Under the pieces are notes generated by a model. It saw nothing but the letters and a program-made list of their open reading frames with translations, was not told where the DNA came from and searched no databases. Shown one piece after another: positions 50,094 to 58,500 of a stretch of DNA of 64,000 nucleotides; positions within the stretch are counted from its first letter, which is position 1, and every line of letters begins with the position of its first letter. Position numbers and translations under genes: made by a program. Origin of the DNA: Rhodanobacteraceae bacterium UBA703 (GTDB taxonomy: Bacteria > Pseudomonadota > Gammaproteobacteria > Xanthomonadales > Rhodanobacteraceae). The stretch lies in the NCBI GenBank assembly GCA_002297645.1, contig DBMH01000098.1, positions 45,357-109,356 of the forward strand, in the 5' to 3' direction.

Positions 50094-50444
50094 TCAGTGA
50101 GCGGGGGCTGCGGCGCCGTCGCCCTTGAGGCAGGTGCTCATGAACGTCTTCCGCTCGTCGCCCTTGAGCTTCTTGCCGCTGGCTTCGGTATTGCAGACTT
50201 TCATCTTCTCCTGCTGCGTCGTCTTCGCGGCGGGAGCTGCGGCCGTTTCGCCCTTGAGGCACGTGCTCATGAACGTCTTGCGCGCGTCACCGGCGAGAGC
50301 CTTCGTCTTCGCTTCCGCGTTGCAATCCTTCATGCGCTGTTGCTGCGGCGTCAGCGCCTTGCCGGAATCGGCCGCGAATGCAGTGCAGGAACCGAACGCG
50401 AGTGCGGAAACCAGAGCCATCGAGAACATCGTCTTGAACTGCAT
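50094..50444 (-). CDS. psiF: PsiF-repeat periplasmic protein
   Basis: Signal peptide; two QQxxMKxCNxEA...GDxRKTFMSTCLKG repeats; GGAGG RBS. Confidence 0.9.
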   Translation of the reverse strand: MQFKTMFSMALVSALAFGSCTAFAADSGKALTPQQQRMKDCNAEAKTKALAGDARKTFMSTCLKGETAAAPAAKTTQQEKMKVCNTEASGKKLKGDERKTFMSTCLKGDGAAAPAH

Positions 50445-50687: not shown

Positions 50688-51077
50688 TCAGTCCGCGTGC
50701 GACAGCCGGTCGTCGCGAACGCAGGTGCGCATGAATTCCTTGCGTTCGCCGCCCTTGATGCCACGGGACTTCGCATCGTCGCTGCACGCCTTGCGCTTGA
50801 TCTGGGCGGCGGTCGGTTCGGAGGCCTTCGCCGCGTCGCTCGCCGCGACCGCCTTGGCGCCACCCTTGAGGCACGTGCTCATGAACGCCTTGCGCTCGTC
50901 CCCCTTGAGGGATTGCGCCTTGGCTTCGGCATTGCAGGTCCTCATGCGCTGCTGCTGGGTACCGAGCGGCTTGGCGGGCGTGACGGTGGCGGGATCGGAC
51001 TCCTGCGCCGTTGCGGCAAAGGAGCCGAGCGCGAAGGCGGCGGCGAGGGCCAGCGGGACGACGGACGTGATCTTCAT
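50688..51077 (-). CDS. Second PsiF-repeat periplasmic protein
   Basis: Signal peptide; QQQRMRTCNAEA..LKGDERKAFMSTCLKG plus a diverged second repeat; AAGGAG RBS. Confidence 0.88.
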   Translation of the reverse strand: MKITSVVPLALAAAFALGSFAATAQESDPATVTPAKPLGTQQQRMRTCNAEAKAQSLKGDERKAFMSTCLKGGAKAVAASDAAKASEPTAAQIKRKACSDDAKSRGIKGGERKEFMRTCVRDDRLSHAD

Positions 51078-51513
51078 GATGGGTACTCCTTCCATTGGTG
51101 GTCCGCGATCGGTCGATCGCGGTGGAAGCAGTGTGCTCGGTCGCGTTCGGGCCGGGCAGAGGAAGAAAGCACCACGGAGCGAGCGCGGAAGGTGCTGCGA
51201 TGGCGAGGAAACCGACGGGGCATCTGTAGGAAATCTGCCAGATGCCCTGACGATCGGTGCCCTGTCCGGCGGTCGTGCATTCGGTCAGGGGGCATACGGG
51301 AACAAGTCTCCGATTTCTCTCGTGCGCCGCCGCGTCATCCCTACCTTGCGCCTCGAAACAGCTCAAGCGGGTACGCGGGCCCAACGGTCTCGCGGAGCAG
51401 CAAACGCGGCGTCGCGGACGACAGGCGGCTGGTCCGGGTTGTTGTGAACACCCCAGGAAGGCCCCCGGGCATGCCGCTCGGGGCCTCCTTGGCCGCGAAT
51501 TTCGCGCGGAGCG

Positions 51514-53841
51514 TCAGCGCGACTCGAAGGCGTCCGCGAAGATGCGGTCGCTTTGCGTGCAATGGACTTCGATGTCGTCGACATCCGTGTTCGAGACCGC
51601 ACCGCTGCCCGCACTGACTTCGCAGTACTGCGCTGGCATGCCGACCGGTTGGTGGCTGATCTCGACGTGGTAGCTGGCCCCATCGGCCAGTGGCGTTGCA
51701 AAGCGGAAGGCGCCGTCGGCTGTCAGGCGCAACGCCTCTCCGCCGTTCAGCAGCAACTCGACTTCGCTTCCGGACAGGCCACTGAGATAGCCACCGATGG
51801 TGTAGCTCGGCGGCGGCGAGGTCACGCAACGGACGGTCACATCGACGACATTGGCCGAACTGACCGTGCCGCTGCCGTTGTCGACCGTGCAGACCTGAAT
51901 CGGGGCGCTCGGCTGCGTGGACACGCTGATCGCGTAAGCGGATCCCGTAGCGAGGAAGCCCGGGAACGTGAACGCGCCGTCGGCATGGATCGGCAGCGTG
52001 GCGCCGCCGTTGAGTTGCAGCGCCAATCCGCTGCCGGCCAGACCGTTGACGGTGCCACCGATGGTGTAGGTCGTCCAAGAGGATTCATGGGCGCCGATGT
52101 CCGCGGCGTTGCCGTGTTCGCGCGGAAAGCCGGTCCCGCGCTGGTCGAACTCCAGCCCTTCGGGATTGCTGCCGGCATCGACCGCGCACGATCCCTCCGC
52201 CAGTGCGTGCGTCATGGTGGCGCCGCCGTTGTCGGCCAGCGGCTGCAGCAGCGGGTCGCAGGTCAGCGGCGCGACCTCGAACGTGATCAACGAGTGCCAG
52301 GCGCCGACGAGGTTGTGCGAGCCTTCCACATGGGTCTGGAACCAGTCCCAGTAGACCTGGTGGGTGATATCCGATTGCAGCCGTCCGTCGTTCTCGTCCG
52401 AACCCCGGTTGCCGTACACCATCGACGATTCCAGGACCAGCCGCTCTGTATCCGCCATCCCGATGCCGCCGCCGAACGAGAAGTAGCCCGCGGTCGAATT
52501 GCCGGTCAGGGTCGAATTGAGCAAGTGCAACTCGCCTTCGTACATGGCGATCCCGCCGCCATAAGCGAACGAGCCGGTAGTCGAATTTCCGGACACGGTG
52601 CTGTTGATCAACGTGACCGGCCCCCACGAGTACATGCCGCCTCCCGGGCTTTGCCCGCCCGTGATCCAGTCCGGACTGTTGCTCAGGCCGTCGGTGGAGT
52701 TGCCCGCGATGAGGGAATCGATGAGGGTTCCCTCGTAGACCTGCAGCCCGCCGCCCATCGAACCCCTGCCGATGGCCCGGTTGCCCACGACCTGCGAGCG
52801 GACCATCAGCAACTCGCCCGCATGCAGGCCGCCGGCGCCGTTGGTCATCTCGCCCGACACGAGGTTGTCACGGATCACGCTGTCGATCACCGTCGCCGAT
52901 TGGGCCGACGCGGCACCCGCACGCCCGCCATTGCCGACGAGGCGGTTGCGCTCCAGGCGCGATCGTTCCAGCAACAAGTGCTCGCTGGTTCGCACGGCGC
53001 CCGCGCGCGTGTTGCGGGCGACCATCTCGTTGTCCGCGACCTCGCTGTCGATCAGTTCGACCGACCCCGTTGAGGCGATCACCCCACCGTCTGCCTCATC
53101 GCCCTGGGCGTAGGAATTGATGATGCGGCAGTGCCTCAGGCGCAGCCCTTCGGGCTGGAAGAGATAGATCGCAGCGCCCGAACCGCCGTTTTCGCCGGTG
53201 ATGCGATTGCCATCGAACAAGCAGTCCGAAGCAGTCATGTTCGACGCCGAGACGGCCCCGCCGAGGTTGTCTGCGGAGTTGTTGATGAAATCGGTTTTCT
53301 CGACGATCAGATGCGGGCCCATCGACCAGATCGCGCCTCCTTCCATGCCTTCCTCGGCGACGCCGTCGCGCAGGATCAGGTTGGTCAGGCGGAGCTCGTC
53401 CGAGGGATCCTGATAGATGACGACGAAGAAAAGGCCGAAGTTGCGGGTCTCTCCCGGGCGGCGACGGATCGTCACGCGCTCCTCGCCGCCGTCGATGGCC
53501 AGTGATTCCGTGACCTCGAGTGAGCCGCCTGTTTCACTGATCAGGTCAACCGTGCGGACCTCCGGAGTGAAGACGATGCGGTCGATGCCGGGCTCGCCGG
53601 ACGCGCATCCGGCGACCGGGGCGTTCGTGTTGGCTGCCTTGATCGCATTGCGCAGGCCGCAGCGCTCGCTCGCCGGTCCCTCGTCGGCTTCGGTGTCGAC
53701 CACGATCTGGGCGGCCCAGGCGCCGGCCGCCGGCAGCAGCGCCAGAGCCAGGGTGAGAAACAGGCGGCGACACGCATCCAGGCGCGTGGGAGGGGTGCGG
53801 GGTACCGCGGGCGCTGCGACAAGCGTCCGATAGCGGGGCAT
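51514..53841 (-). CDS. Exported CSLREA-type / beta-helix / choice-of-anchor Q domain protein with two C-terminal Ig-like repeats
   Basis: Signal peptide (..AGAWA); CGLRNAIKAAN; GG[AI]-rich Pmp-like repeats; DPLLQPLADNGGATMTHAL...DQRG...DIGAHE; two YTIGG.(V/L).GL.GS repeats; ends SDRIFADAFESR. Confidence 0.85.
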   Translation of the reverse strand: MPRYRTLVAAPAVPRTPPTRLDACRRLFLTLALALLPAAGAWAAQIVVDTEADEGPASERCGLRNAIKAANTNAPVAGCASGEPGIDRIVFTPEVRTVDLISETGGSLEVTESLAIDGGEERVTIRRRPGETRNFGLFFVVIYQDPSDELRLTNLILRDGVAEEGMEGGAIWSMGPHLIVEKTDFINNSADNLGGAVSASNMTASDCLFDGNRITGENGGSGAAIYLFQPEGLRLRHCRIINSYAQGDEADGGVIASTGSVELIDSEVADNEMVARNTRAGAVRTSEHLLLERSRLERNRLVGNGGRAGAASAQSATVIDSVIRDNLVSGEMTNGAGGLHAGELLMVRSQVVGNRAIGRGSMGGGLQVYEGTLIDSLIAGNSTDGLSNSPDWITGGQSPGGGMYSWGPVTLINSTVSGNSTTGSFAYGGGIAMYEGELHLLNSTLTGNSTAGYFSFGGGIGMADTERLVLESSMVYGNRGSDENDGRLQSDITHQVYWDWFQTHVEGSHNLVGAWHSLITFEVAPLTCDPLLQPLADNGGATMTHALAEGSCAVDAGSNPEGLEFDQRGTGFPREHGNAADIGAHESSWTTYTIGGTVNGLAGSGLALQLNGGATLPIHADGAFTFPGFLATGSAYAISVSTQPSAPIQVCTVDNGSGTVSSANVVDVTVRCVTSPPPSYTIGGYLSGLSGSEVELLLNGGEALRLTADGAFRFATPLADGASYHVEISHQPVGMPAQYCEVSAGSGAVSNTDVDDIEVHCTQSDRIFADAFESR

Positions 53842-53968
53842 GGAGTTCTCCTGCGTTGGGTCAAGGGCGGCGCGGCCTCGCGCTGCCAGCCTCAGGATGC
53901 TGGCACGGGGGCGCCGCGCGCGACGCCGGACAGCGTGCGTGGCGTTCGCAAACCGTTTGTGCGCCGTT

Positions 53969-56470
53969 TCAACGCGTCTGGATGGGGCGGAATCGCGGCG
54001 GAACCTCGCTGCGTTCGCCGCGCAGCCGACGCACTGCCAGCGCCATGCGCTGCTCGCCGTCACGATCGCCGGACGCCCGATGCAGATGCTCGAACAGGCG
54101 CGCGCAGCCGAGGTCGCGTTCCGCGCAGCGCACCACCCGTCCGGCCACGGTCATGGCGCGATCGAGGCGACCGCTGGCCAGCAAGGCCGACGCATACGCC
54201 TCCACCACCTGGGCCAGGATCATCGGCACGCCGAGACTTTCGGCGGCGGCCAGCGACTTCTCGAAATCCGGCCATGCCTCCTCGGTGCGGCCTTCGGCGT
54301 GCTGCTGCTCGCCCTCGGCCAGCCAGCGCCACAACTGCGCTTCGTTCGGAGAGCGTTCGGCCCAGCTGCGCATGTCGGCCAGACGTTCGCGCGCGGCGTT
54401 GGCGCCGTGCCGATGCCGCAGCGAACGCAGCTGCAGGACCCAGGCCTCGCCCTGCATGGCAGGCACGTCGCCGCCGTCGCCAAGCCACGCATCGAGCGCC
54501 TTGTCGGCGGCATCCGCCTCGCCGAGCGCGACCAGCAGGCGGAATTGCTGCAGGGCGAGGTAGCGCGCGCCGAACGTCTGGGCTCCGGTGCGGGGATCCA
54601 GTGCGGCGAGCAACACCTTGGCGGCCCCCAGTTGGCCCAGATCGATCAGCGGGCGCAGACGGACCGCTGCCGCCATCGGCAACAGGTCGCTGCGATCGAC
54701 CGATGTCACGTAACGCCACAGCGGCTCGCTGGTGGCGAGGGCCTGATCCCACTCGAGCAGGTCCGACTGCATGTCGGCGCGGTCGAGGCGCGCCGACATG
54801 GCGCGCCGCACGTTGCCGAGCGCCATGTACGCTTCCTCCGCCCGCTGCAAGGCCAGGGTCGCTTCGTGCAGGCGACCGCGCACGCCGGCCAGGACCGCTT
54901 CTCCGGTCGCCAGCAGCGCCTCGCGCTCCGGATCCTGGCTCGCTTCCAGACGCATGCGCGCTTCGGCGAGTGCGTCTCCCGCTTCCTCGTAGCGGCCGCG
55001 ATTGGCCAACACGACGCCCAGGTGTGCCTGGGCACGTCCCAGATCGGCGTCGGAACCGCTGGCTCGGGCCAGCATCGCGATGCTTTCGCGACCGTACGAC
55101 TCCGCTTGGGCGAGATCGCCGCCGCGCGCAGCGATCCGCCCCAATCCCAGCAGCGCACGGCCGCGCATTTGCGGCGTGTCCGCCGCGCTGTCGGCGAGAA
55201 CCGCGCCAAACAGGGTCTGCGCCGTCTGCAGGCGATCGAGTTCCAGTGCGGCATTCGCGGCGCCCAGGCGCACCACGGCGAGCGTCGGCGGTGGCGAACC
55301 GGTCGCTCGCAGCCAGCGCTCGGCCTCGTCGCCACGGTCGGACATGACCCCGGCGGTGTAGCGATAGGCCAGGCGCAGGTGCGCTTCGTCCTCTCCTGCC
55401 GGCTCGATGCGCAGCGTGCGTCCGACCGCTTCGAGCAGATGCAGGGCTGCCGTGCGCATGGCGGCGATTTCGTCGTCGGCGTAGGCGGAGGCTTCGAGCG
55501 TCGCTCGTCCCGGCTGCAGCAGGCGCAGGCTCGCCTTCCAGCCCAGCGCGTCGCGCTCGATACGTGGCTCGACCAGCGCACGAGCGCCAAGCGCGTCCAG
55601 CGTGGTGGCGGATGCCGACGCCATCCCGGCACCGCTCGCCGGCGTGATTCCGGCCGGCAACGTGACGATCTCGGCGGCGTGGAGCATGTCGCGGATCGCC
55701 TCGGCGAGGCCCAGGCGCTGCCAACCCTCGCCCGATTCGAACTCGCCCTGCACGGGCTGGATCAGCCATGGACCCGTCGCCAGACCGAACTCGCTCGGCG
55801 CCGGAAGAGCGGCGCGCCGGTCGGCAGCGCGCAATGAGTCCGGGGCCTGCGGTCCGGCCCGCCACACGAGCGCGACCAGAACGGAGGACACGACCAGGAG
55901 GAGGAGGCCGAGGCCGCCCAGAATCCGTGTAGTGCGGCTCCTTCCGCGAAGCAGACCGCGTGACGTGGCGGTGTCAGGGAGTCGAACCTCGGCCACGGTG
56001 GTGTCGGATTCCGGCACCGCGGGCCGCGTTGCGGAAGCGGGCTCGATTTCGGACTGCGGCTTCTGCGTGGCTTCTTCGCCTGTCGCGGCGGTGTCCGGCG
56101 AATCAATCGTCGAAACCGCTCCGGCCGCCACGGGGCCTTCGGTGGTGTCGGCCATCCAGCGATAGCCGAAATGCGACAAGGTGCGGATGACTTCCTGGCG
56201 CCGTGCGTCGTCGCCGACTGCGCGTCTCGCATGCATGATGGTCTGGCGCAGCACGCTGTCGCTGATCTGGGTACGTCCCCAGATCGCCGCGATCAGCTCA
56301 TCGCGACCGACGGCGCGTTCGCGCTGCGCCACGAGATAGGCAATGCAGTCGAAGACGCTCGGCGTCGTGGCAACGGGTTGTCCGTCGCGATGCAGCTCGC
56401 GCTTGGCGGTGTCGAGCGTTCCGCGGTCGAAACGATAGGTGCGGTAACGCGCAGACGCCTGCTGGGCCAC
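53969..56470 (-). CDS. ToxR/CadC-like membrane-anchored regulator: OmpR-type winged helix, one TM helix, TPR-like extracytoplasmic region
   Basis: GTG 56470 with GAGG RBS; YRF...RELHRDG...RAVGRDELIAAIW...IRTLSHFGYRW; TM ILGGLGLLLLVVSSVLVALVW; helical A/L-rich repeats. The ORF-track extension to 58339 is out-of-frame overlap. Confidence 0.85.
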   Translation of the reverse strand: MAQQASARYRTYRFDRGTLDTAKRELHRDGQPVATTPSVFDCIAYLVAQRERAVGRDELIAAIWGRTQISDSVLRQTIMHARRAVGDDARRQEVIRTLSHFGYRWMADTTEGPVAAGAVSTIDSPDTAATGEEATQKPQSEIEPASATRPAVPESDTTVAEVRLPDTATSRGLLRGRSRTTRILGGLGLLLLVVSSVLVALVWRAGPQAPDSLRAADRRAALPAPSEFGLATGPWLIQPVQGEFESGEGWQRLGLAEAIRDMLHAAEIVTLPAGITPASGAGMASASATTLDALGARALVEPRIERDALGWKASLRLLQPGRATLEASAYADDEIAAMRTAALHLLEAVGRTLRIEPAGEDEAHLRLAYRYTAGVMSDRGDEAERWLRATGSPPPTLAVVRLGAANAALELDRLQTAQTLFGAVLADSAADTPQMRGRALLGLGRIAARGGDLAQAESYGRESIAMLARASGSDADLGRAQAHLGVVLANRGRYEEAGDALAEARMRLEASQDPEREALLATGEAVLAGVRGRLHEATLALQRAEEAYMALGNVRRAMSARLDRADMQSDLLEWDQALATSEPLWRYVTSVDRSDLLPMAAAVRLRPLIDLGQLGAAKVLLAALDPRTGAQTFGARYLALQQFRLLVALGEADAADKALDAWLGDGGDVPAMQGEAWVLQLRSLRHRHGANAARERLADMRSWAERSPNEAQLWRWLAEGEQQHAEGRTEEAWPDFEKSLAAAESLGVPMILAQVVEAYASALLASGRLDRAMTVAGRVVRCAERDLGCARLFEHLHRASGDRDGEQRMALAVRRLRGERSEVPPRFRPIQTR

Positions 56471-56991
56471 TGAATCCCTCTGGAAAGTCCGGTTTCCGCT
56501 ACACGGTACCTCATACGCGATGGGGGCCCTACCGCGAATGGTCGCGTCGGCAGTCAGGGACCTGTGTGAATTGCCTTTTCGCGTCGATTCGCGAGAGGCC
56601 GCACGCGGCGCATGGGGGCCATGGCACCGGCAAACCGAACCCTCCGCGCCGGGAATGCGCGCCGACGGCTTGCGATGGCGGTCGAGTCGCCGGGGGCCGT
56701 TCCAAGTGCCGCGCGACGCCCTTGTCTGCTGCCGCTGGAATTCGGGCTCATCGGAGAGGCCGGCTCTGCCCGCGAAACCACGGCGTTGGGGGCGGGTGCG
56801 CCGCCGATCCGTAGAGAGAGCGGCGGGAAGAGATGGTGCGCCCGCATCGAGGCGAATGCCGGCTTGGTTGCGCCGGCGCCACAACCGCCCCGACGGGGAA
56901 CACGTCGACGGACGGGCGGACGGCTTGCGGAGATCGTCAGCGTGGGCGCCTGTGGGAATCCCGCCAGGCGCCCGCTGGACGGACGAGCGTG

Positions 56992-58500
56992 TCAGGCCGC
57001 TGCGCGCTCGGTTTCCATCTTGCGCGGACCGTGGATGAGCGCCTGGCGTACGCCGTCGACGATCAGATCCACCTCGGCGGCGGTCGTCGCGAAATGCGGC
57101 GTGAAGCGCAACGAGTTGGCGCCGCCGTGAATGACGCCGTAACCGTGTTCGCGCATCCATTCCTCGGTGCTGCCGGCGCCGTAGCACTTGAATTCCGCGG
57201 CCAGTTCGCACGAAAACAGCAGGCCCGTGCCCTGCACCTTCGTGATGTAGCCGGGGAGTTCCGCCTTCAGCTTGCCGAGCTTTTCCACGAATTCGCGACC
57301 GCGGGCGCGGATGTTCTCGCGCAGCTCCGGCGTCAGCGTGTTGAGCACGGCGACGCCGACGTCGAGCGCGCGCGGGTTCGCCGTCATCGTGTTGCCGTAG
57401 ATGCCCTTCCTGTAGAGCTCGGCGGCGCGCGTGTTGGCCGCGACGACGGACAACGGATACTGGCCGGCGTTGAGTGCTTTGGAATAGGTCTCGAGGTCCG
57501 GCGCTTCGAGCGTCTCGAAGCCCGGATAGTCGACGATCGACAGCACGCCATGCGCGCGCAGGCCGGCCTGGATCGAGTCGATCAGCAGCAGGCTGCCGTG
57601 AGCCTTGGTCAGCTCGCGTGCGGCGGTGTAGAACTCGGTGGAGACCGAACGGCCTGGATCGCCTTCGCCCATGACCGGTTCGATGAACACGGCTTCGATG
57701 AACCAGCCGTTCGCGTCGGCGTCGGCGAATACCTGCTTCAGCTGCTCGACGCTGTACGGCTCGACCGTCAGGAGGCTGTCCTCGCCGCGGTAGCTGGCGA
57801 GATTCTGGAGATAGGTCTTGCGGGTGGAGTCGGAGTACAGCGCCGGGCGCTCGGTGCGGCCGTGGAATGCGCCCTTGACGGCGACGCGCTTGACCGCACG
57901 GCCGGCGTGGCGCGCGCCCGGGTCGGTCATCAGCTTGGCGTTGACGTCGACGATGCGCGAAGCCAGCGAGACGGACTCGGAGCCGGAATTCAGGCACATG
58001 AACTTCGCGTACGGGCAGCCTCCTTCGCGGTTCTGGCCGATTTCCTTCCTGAGCGCCTGTCCGAACTTCAGCTGGGACAGGTTCGGCGTCATCACGTTCG
58101 CCATCACCTGGGGACGCGACATCACGCCGAGGATCGCCTTCGGCGCGTGGCCGAGGCCGAGCATGCCGTAGCCGCCGGCGTCGTAGATCACCGCTCCCTT
58201 CAGCGTGACGATCCATGGGCCGTGCGCGGCGAGGGCGACGTACGGGTTGACGCCGTCGTCGGGATAGAAGTTGACGAAATCGGACTGCGCGCGGGTGATC
58301 TGCTCGGCCTCGTCGAGGTGCAGGAAGTCGGACATGCACGAGCGCAGCGCGAGATGCGCCGCATAGGCCTCGTCGATCGCCTCGCCCAGTGCCGGGTCGG
58401 ACTGCAGGAAGCGCTCGATCGACGCGTCGTCGAGGCCGCTGGTACGCACGGCACCGTCGAACTCGCGCATTTCCTTGAGTTTGGCCAGCATCGGATTCAT
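56992..58500 (-). CDS. Class III PLP aminotransferase, probable L-lysine 6-aminotransferase
   Basis: NSGSE, FHGRT, IEPVMGEG, IDSIQAG, PLP lysine in YSKALN; overall resembles the 'Flavobacterium lutescens' Lat type (recalled, not searched). Confidence 0.8.
   Translation of the reverse strand: MNPMLAKLKEMREFDGAVRTSGLDDASIERFLQSDPALGEAIDEAYAAHLALRSCMSDFLHLDEAEQITRAQSDFVNFYPDDGVNPYVALAAHGPWIVTLKGAVIYDAGGYGMLGLGHAPKAILGVMSRPQVMANVMTPNLSQLKFGQALRKEIGQNREGGCPYAKFMCLNSGSESVSLASRIVDVNAKLMTDPGARHAGRAVKRVAVKGAFHGRTERPALYSDSTRKTYLQNLASYRGEDSLLTVEPYSVEQLKQVFADADANGWFIEAVFIEPVMGEGDPGRSVSTEFYTAARELTKAHGSLLLIDSIQAGLRAHGVLSIVDYPGFETLEAPDLETYSKALNAGQYPLSVVAANTRAAELYRKGIYGNTMTANPRALDVGVAVLNTLTPELRENIRARGREFVEKLGKLKAELPGYITKVQGTGLLFSCELAAEFKCYGAGSTEEWMREHGYGVIHGGANSLRFTPHFATTAAEVDLIVDGVRQALIHGPRKMETERAAA

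Follow-up and report, generated by a model that had tools for sequence, protein, structure and literature searches.

Does a membrane-spanning transcription regulator control the gene of the exported protein directly downstream of it, and what might such a regulator sense? This question is raised by a locus on a stretch of 64,000 nucleotides (nt) from Rhodanobacteraceae bacterium UBA703 (contig DBMH01000098.1; the whole stretch analysed is called the window below, and all positions are counted from its first letter). A gene with a GTG start codon (53969..56470, minus strand) encodes a regulator of 833 amino acids (aa), as established from its translation, a codon-usage gene call, Pfam and NCBIfam matches and an AlphaFold2 (AF2) model. 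It is followed by a gap of 127 nt (53842..53968, minus strand), the presumed promoter and operator region of the next gene, and then by a co-oriented gene with an ATG start codon (51514..53841, minus strand) that encodes a beta-helix protein of 775 aa, here called the partner (translation, Pfam Beta_helix, NCBIfam choice_anch_Q). The first-pass annotation of this DNA had placed both genes at these positions and proposed that they form a two-gene module of a sensor and a surface protein; their minus-strand co-orientation and the length of the gap were borne out by translation.

We favour, with a probability of about 0.68, the reading that this protein is a CadC-like regulator dedicated to the adjacent exported-protein gene, which it would control from the gap in response to a periplasmic signal. 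This reading builds on three observations: the architecture of the regulator, the conservation of the gene pair, and the regularly spaced repeats found in the gaps of the whole family. A cassette composed of a regulator, operator-like repeats and an exoprotein ending in a shared C-terminal tail has been duplicated many times and is typical of Dokdonella, Tahibacter and their relatives among the Rhodanobacteraceae; the locus examined here is one of its copies. One-component regulators that reside in the membrane have so far been described in a few enteric systems of virulence and acid stress, and it is still debated how they perceive signals and gain access to DNA from there. The present family multiplies this principle, reaching at least 16 copies per genome in several genera and counting about 2,300 clusters at 50% identity in public data. 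The matched triples of regulator, operator and target could thus serve as a natural series for the study of DNA-recognition specificity and signal sensing, and they offer a way into the regulation of many exoproteins with an undescribed C-terminal tail.

Regulators of this family are paired with genes encoding tailed exoproteins

The source genome (G000) is a metagenome-assembled genome, 87% complete and split into 375 contigs, in which at least 26 loci carry the N-terminal winged helix-turn-helix (wHTH) of the family. Seven of the 12 regulators with a readable 3′ side (on contigs C81, C183, C50, C163, C56, C102 and C221) directly precede a co-oriented gene whose product ends in the shared tail, and one further regulator is convergent with such a gene. 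Tailed genes account for 108 of the 3626 genes of this genome, which gives a binomial P of about 1e-8 for the pairing (hand calculation). The paralogues are often cut by contig ends, within or just after the wHTH (C146, C12, C228, C330, C245, C42 and C55, and likewise C296, C104, C72, C33, C18, C148 and C57); paralogy probably breaks the assembly, making the copy numbers of the regulator lower bounds.

The same pairing is found beyond this genome. In a sample of 80 loci from species-representative genomes of Dokdonella, Tahibacter, Rudaea, other Rhodanobacteraceae, Lysobacter and Luteimonas, the downstream gene was readable for 67 regulators and proved to be co-oriented and strictly tailed in 33 of these cases, as compared to 18 tailed genes among 594 located at least two positions away (Fisher P 2e-24), and 10 more downstream genes encode tail variants of the IFASGFD type. 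A second sample, of 80 loci from metagenomes, gave 23/47 tailed neighbours against 4/301 in the background (P 4e-19). The first-pass annotation had staked its module on the conservation of this neighbourhood among paralogues and homologues, and conserved it is, in all three sets (7/12, 33/67 and 23/47), against an overall background rate of tailed genes of 1–3%.

The family is large, with 2,289 clusters at 50% identity (E <= 1e-30) among 1.84 billion representatives; the 150 best clusters all correspond to proteins of about 760–860 aa that are matched almost from end to end. The genera g1, g26, g18 and g21 are rich in full-length regulators, with 8 to at least 16 copies per genome. In a FastTree phylogeny of 77 regulators (SH-like, i.e., Shimodaira–Hasegawa-like, support only), regulators group by the family of their partner, and the regulator of the window forms a long branch. 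The match between regulator clades and partner families indicates that regulator and partner were inherited and duplicated together.

The partners themselves are diverse. Those of the regulators in the source genome are HAF-repeat, delta-60, FG-GAP, DUF7453/NxxGxxAF or unassigned proteins, and only one of the 19 choice-of-anchor Q genes of this genome lies near such a regulator; elsewhere, choice-of-anchor Q partners were found for only two other, unrelated family members (L030 and L118). Since partners come from several unrelated repeat families and Q genes are so rarely close to a regulator, the coupling is to the tail and not to the Q fold. The two-gene module therefore stands as a conserved regulator–exoprotein pair, and its supposed tie to CSLREA/choice-of-anchor Q proteins gives way to a tie to the tail.

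At the Luteimonas, Lysobacter and Novilysobacter loci L048, L055, L064 and L070, the regulator is followed by a gene of 700–1700 aa whose product ends in GVGLGFGW or a similar sequence. These downstream genes look autotransporter-barrel-like, as in the MarT/MisL pair discussed below.

A transmembrane regulator with a large, predicted periplasmic sensor

The regulator begins with a cytoplasmic winged helix of the OmpR/PhoB/CadC type (residues 1–112; 56135..56470, minus strand), which is modelled with a predicted local distance difference test (pLDDT) score above 90 and shows the highest conservation of all regions in the family alignment. It matches Pfam Trans_reg_C (PF00486) over residues 30–104 (49.3 bits against a cutoff of 26.2, 5.4e-13), and a profile search of the PDB retrieved the DNA-binding domain of CadC as best match (5ju7, 3e-11), followed by ToxR (7nmb, 1e-5) and PhoB. 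No Response_reg/receiver domain was detected with Pfam or NCBIfam, the wHTH starting around residue 10. The winged helix is followed by a Pro/Ala/Thr-rich, disordered cytoplasmic linker (residues 113–185; 55916..56134, minus strand; AF2 pLDDT below 50 over residues 117–185) that varies in length and sequence across the family alignment, and by a single transmembrane (TM) helix with an Arg-rich N-terminal flank (residues 187–203; 55862..55912, minus strand). This AF2 helix coincides with the only hydrophobic segment of the protein (residues 181–207 in the hydropathy profile). From the positive-inside rule and from the wHTH having to be cytoplasmic, we infer an N-in topology, which places the remainder of the protein in the periplasm.

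The AF2 model, built from 72 family members, has an overall pLDDT of 84 and divides the predicted periplasmic region into two parts. The membrane-proximal part is an alpha/beta domain (residues 235–348; 55427..55768, minus strand) which, modelled alone (pLDDT 87), superposes on residues 35–160 of TolB (1c5k) with a VIA Z score of 11.4 and a root mean square deviation of 2.7 Å over 114 residues. Foldseek likewise retrieved TolB (E 2e-5, query template modelling score 0.63–0.66), with PelC, LpoB and CsgG-like proteins ranking after it, and the periplasmic domain of CadC (3ly7) is a middling match to this fold (Z 7.0). We thus assign to this domain the fold, and the fold only, of the N-terminal domain of TolB, on the basis of its model. 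It is the best-conserved periplasmic part in the alignment, with W250 and W311 invariant. The second part is a TPR-like superhelix of 24 helices, or about 12 hairpins (residues 361–817; 54020..55390, minus strand), matched by Foldseek with probability 1.0 to OGT, LGN and domain III of MalT, as well as to subunits of the APC, and by profile search to a consensus TPR (3.7e-27) and to the TPR of AfsR (2e-12); the Pfam TPR matches obtained with the single regulator sequence are all below the cutoff. This superhelix diverges fast, with about 30% identity among family members.

The architecture supports the classification of this protein as a ToxR/CadC-type transmembrane transcription regulator, predicted to bind DNA: it has an N-terminal Trans_reg_C domain, a single TM helix and no receiver domain. 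In this respect the first-pass description of an 833-aa membrane one-component regulator with an OmpR-type winged helix holds. It had also attributed more than 550 aa outside the membrane to TPR-like helices; such helices are indeed present, but over about 457 aa (361–817), residues 235–348 being TolB-N-like.

Phased repeats in the gaps resemble operators

We analysed 68 gaps between regulators and their partners. The hexamer CGAATG is 7-fold enriched in these gaps (45 copies against 6.3 expected) and shows a strong strand bias, the 45 copies of the coding strand facing 6 on the other strand. Successive copies are separated by 11 base pairs (bp) in 14 of 26 cases and by 22 bp in three others. 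The autocorrelation of 7-mers also peaks at 11 bp (16.9 per 1000, versus 4.4 in other gaps) and at 22 bp, and the metagenome gaps reproduce both peaks (19.4 and 13.5, respectively). An array with 11-bp spacing is present in 38/68 gaps, as compared to 156/1820 background gaps (P 1e-21), and ends at a median of 129 nt before the start codon of the partner, usually between 90 and 145 nt; the gene calls being those of a purpose-built codon-usage caller, start codons and hence gap lengths are approximate. A scan for autoregulation detected no such array signal upstream of the regulators across the family.

In other clades, the repeats read ACATCG or TGTCAC with the same 11-bp spacing, and the repeat class tracks the regulator clade. 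The recognition helix also differs between repeat classes (for instance LLGQT versus LLSHT), a correspondence that is suggestive and confounded by descent. A (C)TGTCA class with 11-bp spacing occurs in the gaps of L040, L052, L061, L032, L046, L041 and L047, and resembles the pho box of PhoB. Direct repeats at helical spacing are bound by winged helices of the OmpR/PhoB/ToxR type, and the phased repeats of the gaps look like operators to which the regulators would bind.

An array of three CGAATG copies with 11-bp spacing was also observed at a distance from any regulator, in the same genome (C145:13494-13530, plus strand), before the unlinked gene of an untailed 538-aa protein that shares 33% identity with the partner of the C102 regulator. 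The presence of the same array at the C102 cassette and before this paralogue indicates that the array belongs to the control region of the target, and one regulator may, judging from this shared array, control both loci.

At the locus of the window, the gap contains a candidate operator composed of two phased 11-bp half-sites, GCACAAACGGT and TTGCGAACGCC (CAAACG-N5-CGAACG; 53941..53962, minus strand; weak matrix score). This exact pattern occurs nowhere else in the genome, and it ends 99 nt before the ATG of the partner, i.e., within the range of 90–145 nt typical of the family.

By analogy with CadC acting on cadBA, we propose that the winged helix, connected in the cytoplasm to the single membrane helix through some 70 aa of disordered linker, would be governed by the TolB-N-like domain and the TPR superhelix on the periplasmic side. 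A periplasmic signal would alter the state of this sensor, through oligomerisation or proteolysis, and the winged helices would then bind the phased direct repeats in the 127-nt gap and control, most likely activate, the promoter of the adjacent beta-helix protein gene.

A different view is that the two genes have no dedicated link: the pair would be merely co-transcribed or co-inherited, with a regulator that is global or responds to envelope stress, or the protein would act as a periplasmic TPR scaffold for the export of tailed proteins. The weakness of the operator at this locus fits this view, as does the scan of the gap, which revealed neither a promoter nor a terminator consensus. Moreover, 88 of the 108 tailed genes have no regulator nearby, and the array at an unlinked gene described above means that regulons can exceed one gene. 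On the other hand, strand-specific 11-bp arrays that shift with the regulator clade are difficult to account for unless the regulator binds directly in the vicinity of the partner's promoter, and the strongest conservation falls on the wHTH, which speaks against a role as a scaffold confined to the periplasm. We therefore regard the absence of a dedicated link as unlikely.

The reading of a dedicated regulator nevertheless has to be set against several points. The half-sites of the window are weak, scoring 5.9 bits on a matrix of the CGAATG class, which puts them in the top 3.8% of comparable gaps, and the consensus scan (51300-57100) identified no consensus sigma-70 promoter, in the gap or elsewhere. 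The regulator lies on a long branch and has a divergent recognition helix (VLRQTIMH), so that its operator is not readable from its relatives and the true site may differ from the one proposed here. Apart from the same sequence, the collections searched contain no orthologue of this regulator above 35% identity that would bear on the conservation of the exact regulator/choice-of-anchor Q pair. At the level of the family, about one third to one half of the members have no tailed gene directly downstream, and the P values of the neighbourhood comparisons overstate the evidence because the loci are related and not independent; the effect is still large. Finally, we found no experiment on any member of the family in the literature searched.

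The partner protein and the shared C-terminal tail

The partner has a signal-peptide-like N-terminus (residues 1–43; 53713..53841, minus strand), read from its translation and flagged by a crude hydropathy criterion, with the hydrophobic core LFLTLALALLPAAGAWA and an RRLFL motif. This region, which reads CRRLFLTLALALL, resembles a twin-arginine (RRxFL) motif and, if the motif is real, bears on the export route of a beta-helix protein. The body of the protein is a right-handed beta-helix (Pfam Beta_helix, 36 bits against a cutoff of 25.9), followed by a choice-of-anchor Q domain (residues 529–587; 52081..52257, minus strand; NCBIfam NF041518, 73.7 bits against a cutoff of 25) and by two C-terminal repeats of about 90 aa each (51553..52077, minus strand; phmmer domain matches, query residues 589–676 and 680–773), which are common to 11 other large proteins of the genome. 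A CSLREA N-terminal domain (TIGR04214) was considered and rejected, with 16.6 bits against a cutoff of 25, the motif CGLRNA being CSLREA-like only. The annotation of the neighbour as an exported beta-helix protein of the CSLREA/choice-of-anchor Q type is thus retained for the Q domain and dropped for CSLREA.

The partner ends with the tail SDRIFADAFESR (51517..51552, minus strand; tail list and tail logo). Its C-terminus, DRIFADAFESR, is a rare Gly-to-Ala variant of a tail found throughout the genome, where about 105 proteins carry D-x-[IL]-F-x-[DN]-G-F-[DE] at the C-terminus, followed by 0–5 residues and without a TM segment. The core motif occurs 140 times in the genome, 104 of these within 15 residues of a C-terminus, and the logo shows that the tail is near-invariant across its approximately 105 carriers, which include HAF, delta-60, NxxGxxAF and choice-of-anchor Q proteins. 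No NCBIfam model matches the tail, and full-text literature searches retrieved no study of it, tail strings such as FADGFD returning unrelated words.

We surveyed 61 genomes of the family Rhodanobacteraceae for a DNA pattern of the tail, using the reversed pattern as a control. The pattern is present in 12 of them, with 3–136 copies each, and the control gave 0 in all. The genomes of the own genus contain 101–136 matches, those of genus g26 47–54, genus g18 20, genus g21 3–15 and genus g24 18–25; one g10 genome (G035) contains 19 and the other 49 genomes none. Among the genomes surveyed, the tail is confined to a few Rhodanobacteraceae genera. Since proteins of the same cargo families carry PEP-CTERM or other anchors in other bacteria, the tail is a good candidate for an undescribed sorting or secretion signal.

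Tailed genes of the source genome are also enriched beside a second set of regulators, namely 17 extracytoplasmic function (ECF) sigma factors (PF07638) that form pairs with Ser/Thr kinase-TPR proteins; of these 17 sigma factors, seven lie within two genes of a tailed gene (P 1.5e-4). Examples are located on contigs C140 (L173:1241-5526), C111 (L174:356-946), C124 and others.

What the regulator could sense

The dedicated regulator favoured here requires a signal, and two candidates are suggested by the locus itself. The first is the cargo: as in a co-component system, and in loose likeness to ToxS, VtrC and TcpH acting on their regulators, the exported partner would bind, in the periplasm, the TPR or the TolB-N-like sensor of its own regulator, being at once target and ligand, and expression would follow its state of export or folding. 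Both proteins are periplasmic according to their predicted topology, the pairing is stable and one-to-one, and regulator clades are co-inherited with partner families. The TPR superhelices nearest in fold bind extended peptides (LGN, OGT, Tom71 with the Hsp70 tail), and a TPR part diverging down to about 30% identity would fit partner-specific recognition, or equally any diverse ligand. The known co-components are, in contrast, small lipocalin-like proteins whose genes overlap that of the regulator, very different from a 775-aa beta-helix gene placed after a 127-nt gap with operator-like repeats, and some regulators have no exported gene downstream at all. We consider such feedback by the cargo rather unlikely. 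The same doubt applies to its extension to the whole set, in which each of the at least 26 regulators would be a cargo-specific checkpoint whose fast-evolving TPR recognises its own partner, the substrate of this partner or its export state. If this extension were true, Dokdonella-type bacteria would operate dozens of separate feedback circuits, serving proteins that are sorted through the D-x-[IL]-F-x-[DN]-G-F-[DE] tail.

The second candidate is the tail, which the periplasmic domain would bind as a C-terminal peptide, thereby reading the load of a tail-dependent pathway. TPRs such as those of Hop or PEX5 bind C-terminal peptides. The tail and the regulator family reach high numbers in the same genera, the regulators lie preferentially next to tailed genes, and the TolB-N-like domain is the best conserved of the periplasmic region. 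However, a near-invariant tail in about 105 proteins cannot explain at least 26 divergent dedicated sensors, and the two elements are separable: full-length regulators occur in G024 and G053 in the absence of any tail motif, whereas genus g24 and G035 have 18–25 tails and no full-length regulators. In addition, the regulators of Lysobacter and Luteimonas precede untailed autotransporter-like genes, yet keep W250 and W311. Because the tail is near-invariant, is separable from the regulators across genomes and is dispensable for the retention of these two residues, it is unlikely to be the specific signal, and the sensing of tail load appears highly improbable.

Gene boundaries and surroundings of the locus

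The start of the regulator at 56470 is preceded by GAGGGA, 7 nt before the GTG, and was also chosen by the codon-usage caller trained on its own genome; AGGAGA precedes the ATG of the partner. The frame of the regulator stays open upstream to 58339, but this extension was judged non-coding, and the gene caller assigned 56992-58500, in a different frame, to a class-III aminotransferase gene. We accepted the start at 56470 because the gene call agrees with a database protein that is 99% identical to the regulator and likewise has 833 aa.

The consensus scan of 51300-57100 detected no intrinsic terminator either, and RNA structure in the gap is not significant (z −0.6). Upstream of the regulator, a repeat CGCGAAT-N3-CGCGAAA (56577-56593, minus strand) comprises two CGAATG-like units with 10-bp spacing, about 107–123 nt before the GTG; it could be an auto- or cross-regulatory site, in a family that is without such an upstream signal. 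On the other side of the pair, two exported PsiF-repeat proteins of the phosphate-starvation-inducible family are encoded on the same strand (50094-50444 and 50688-51095, minus strand), 418 nt downstream of the partner.

Comparison with known systems

Full-text literature searches yielded no study of this regulator architecture, and no studied member with the wHTH-TM-TolB-N-like-TPR organisation of the window regulator was found in the literature searched; the main text of a survey of transmembrane transcription regulators is without mention of TPR or TolB (Demey et al., PMC10269533). The TolB-N-like domain and TPR are combined in the same way, outside the membrane, in generic sensors in which a wHTH, kinase or cyclase is linked to them by a TM segment.

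The SARP regulator AfsR (SARP, Streptomyces antibiotic regulatory protein) also associates a wHTH with TPRs, and the TPR of the window regulator matches that of AfsR, as mentioned above. SARPs are, however, soluble proteins with BTAD and NB-ARC domains, whereas the regulator described here spans the membrane. Membership of the SARP/AfsR group was rejected, as the regulator has no Pfam match to BTAD or NB-ARC and contains a TM helix.

The co-component regulators (ToxR/ToxS, TcpP/TcpH, VtrA/VtrC and PsaE/PsaF) possess a small periplasmic domain and depend on a lipocalin-like protein, likewise small, that is usually encoded by a gene overlapping their own (Kinch et al. preprint, 10.1101/2022.04.08.487670). 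They share with the present system a membrane-tethered CadC-like wHTH and a functionally linked downstream neighbour. They differ in that the sensor is here large and self-contained, and the downstream gene encodes a 775-aa cargo after a gap of 127 nt. A ToxR/ToxS-like co-component cassette was rejected for this locus, where no small lipocalin-like partner abuts the regulator and its place is taken by the beta-helix gene. Among regulators of this kind, MarT (with FidL) controls the MisL autotransporter and PsaE/F controls psaA, both adjacent surface adhesins (10.1101/2022.04.08.487670). This control of adhesins parallels the position of the Lysobacter and Luteimonas regulators ahead of autotransporter-like genes.

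The closest parallel is CadC of Escherichia coli, the activator of the adjacent cadBA. Both regulators have the same CadC/OmpR-type wHTH, disordered linker and single TM helix, and in both the periplasmic sensor consists of an alpha/beta subdomain followed by helical repeats. In both cases, the target is co-oriented and located directly downstream, behind an operator in the gap, which is putative in the present case. The window regulator is not an orthologue of CadC: its best NCBIfam match, to the N-terminal part of CadC (NF007540), reaches 37.4 bits, against a cutoff of 400 and over residues 19–156 only, and it has no CadC_C1 Pfam match. Instead of CadC_C1, its sensor is composed of a TolB-N-like domain and about 12 TPR-like hairpins (around 600 aa in total); its target is an exported repeat/beta-helix protein and not a decarboxylase system; and its family is present in at least 16 copies per genome. 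Taken together, these comparisons suggest that the regulators of this family most likely follow the same working principle as CadC, with a different sensor and with exoproteins, often tailed, as their putative targets.

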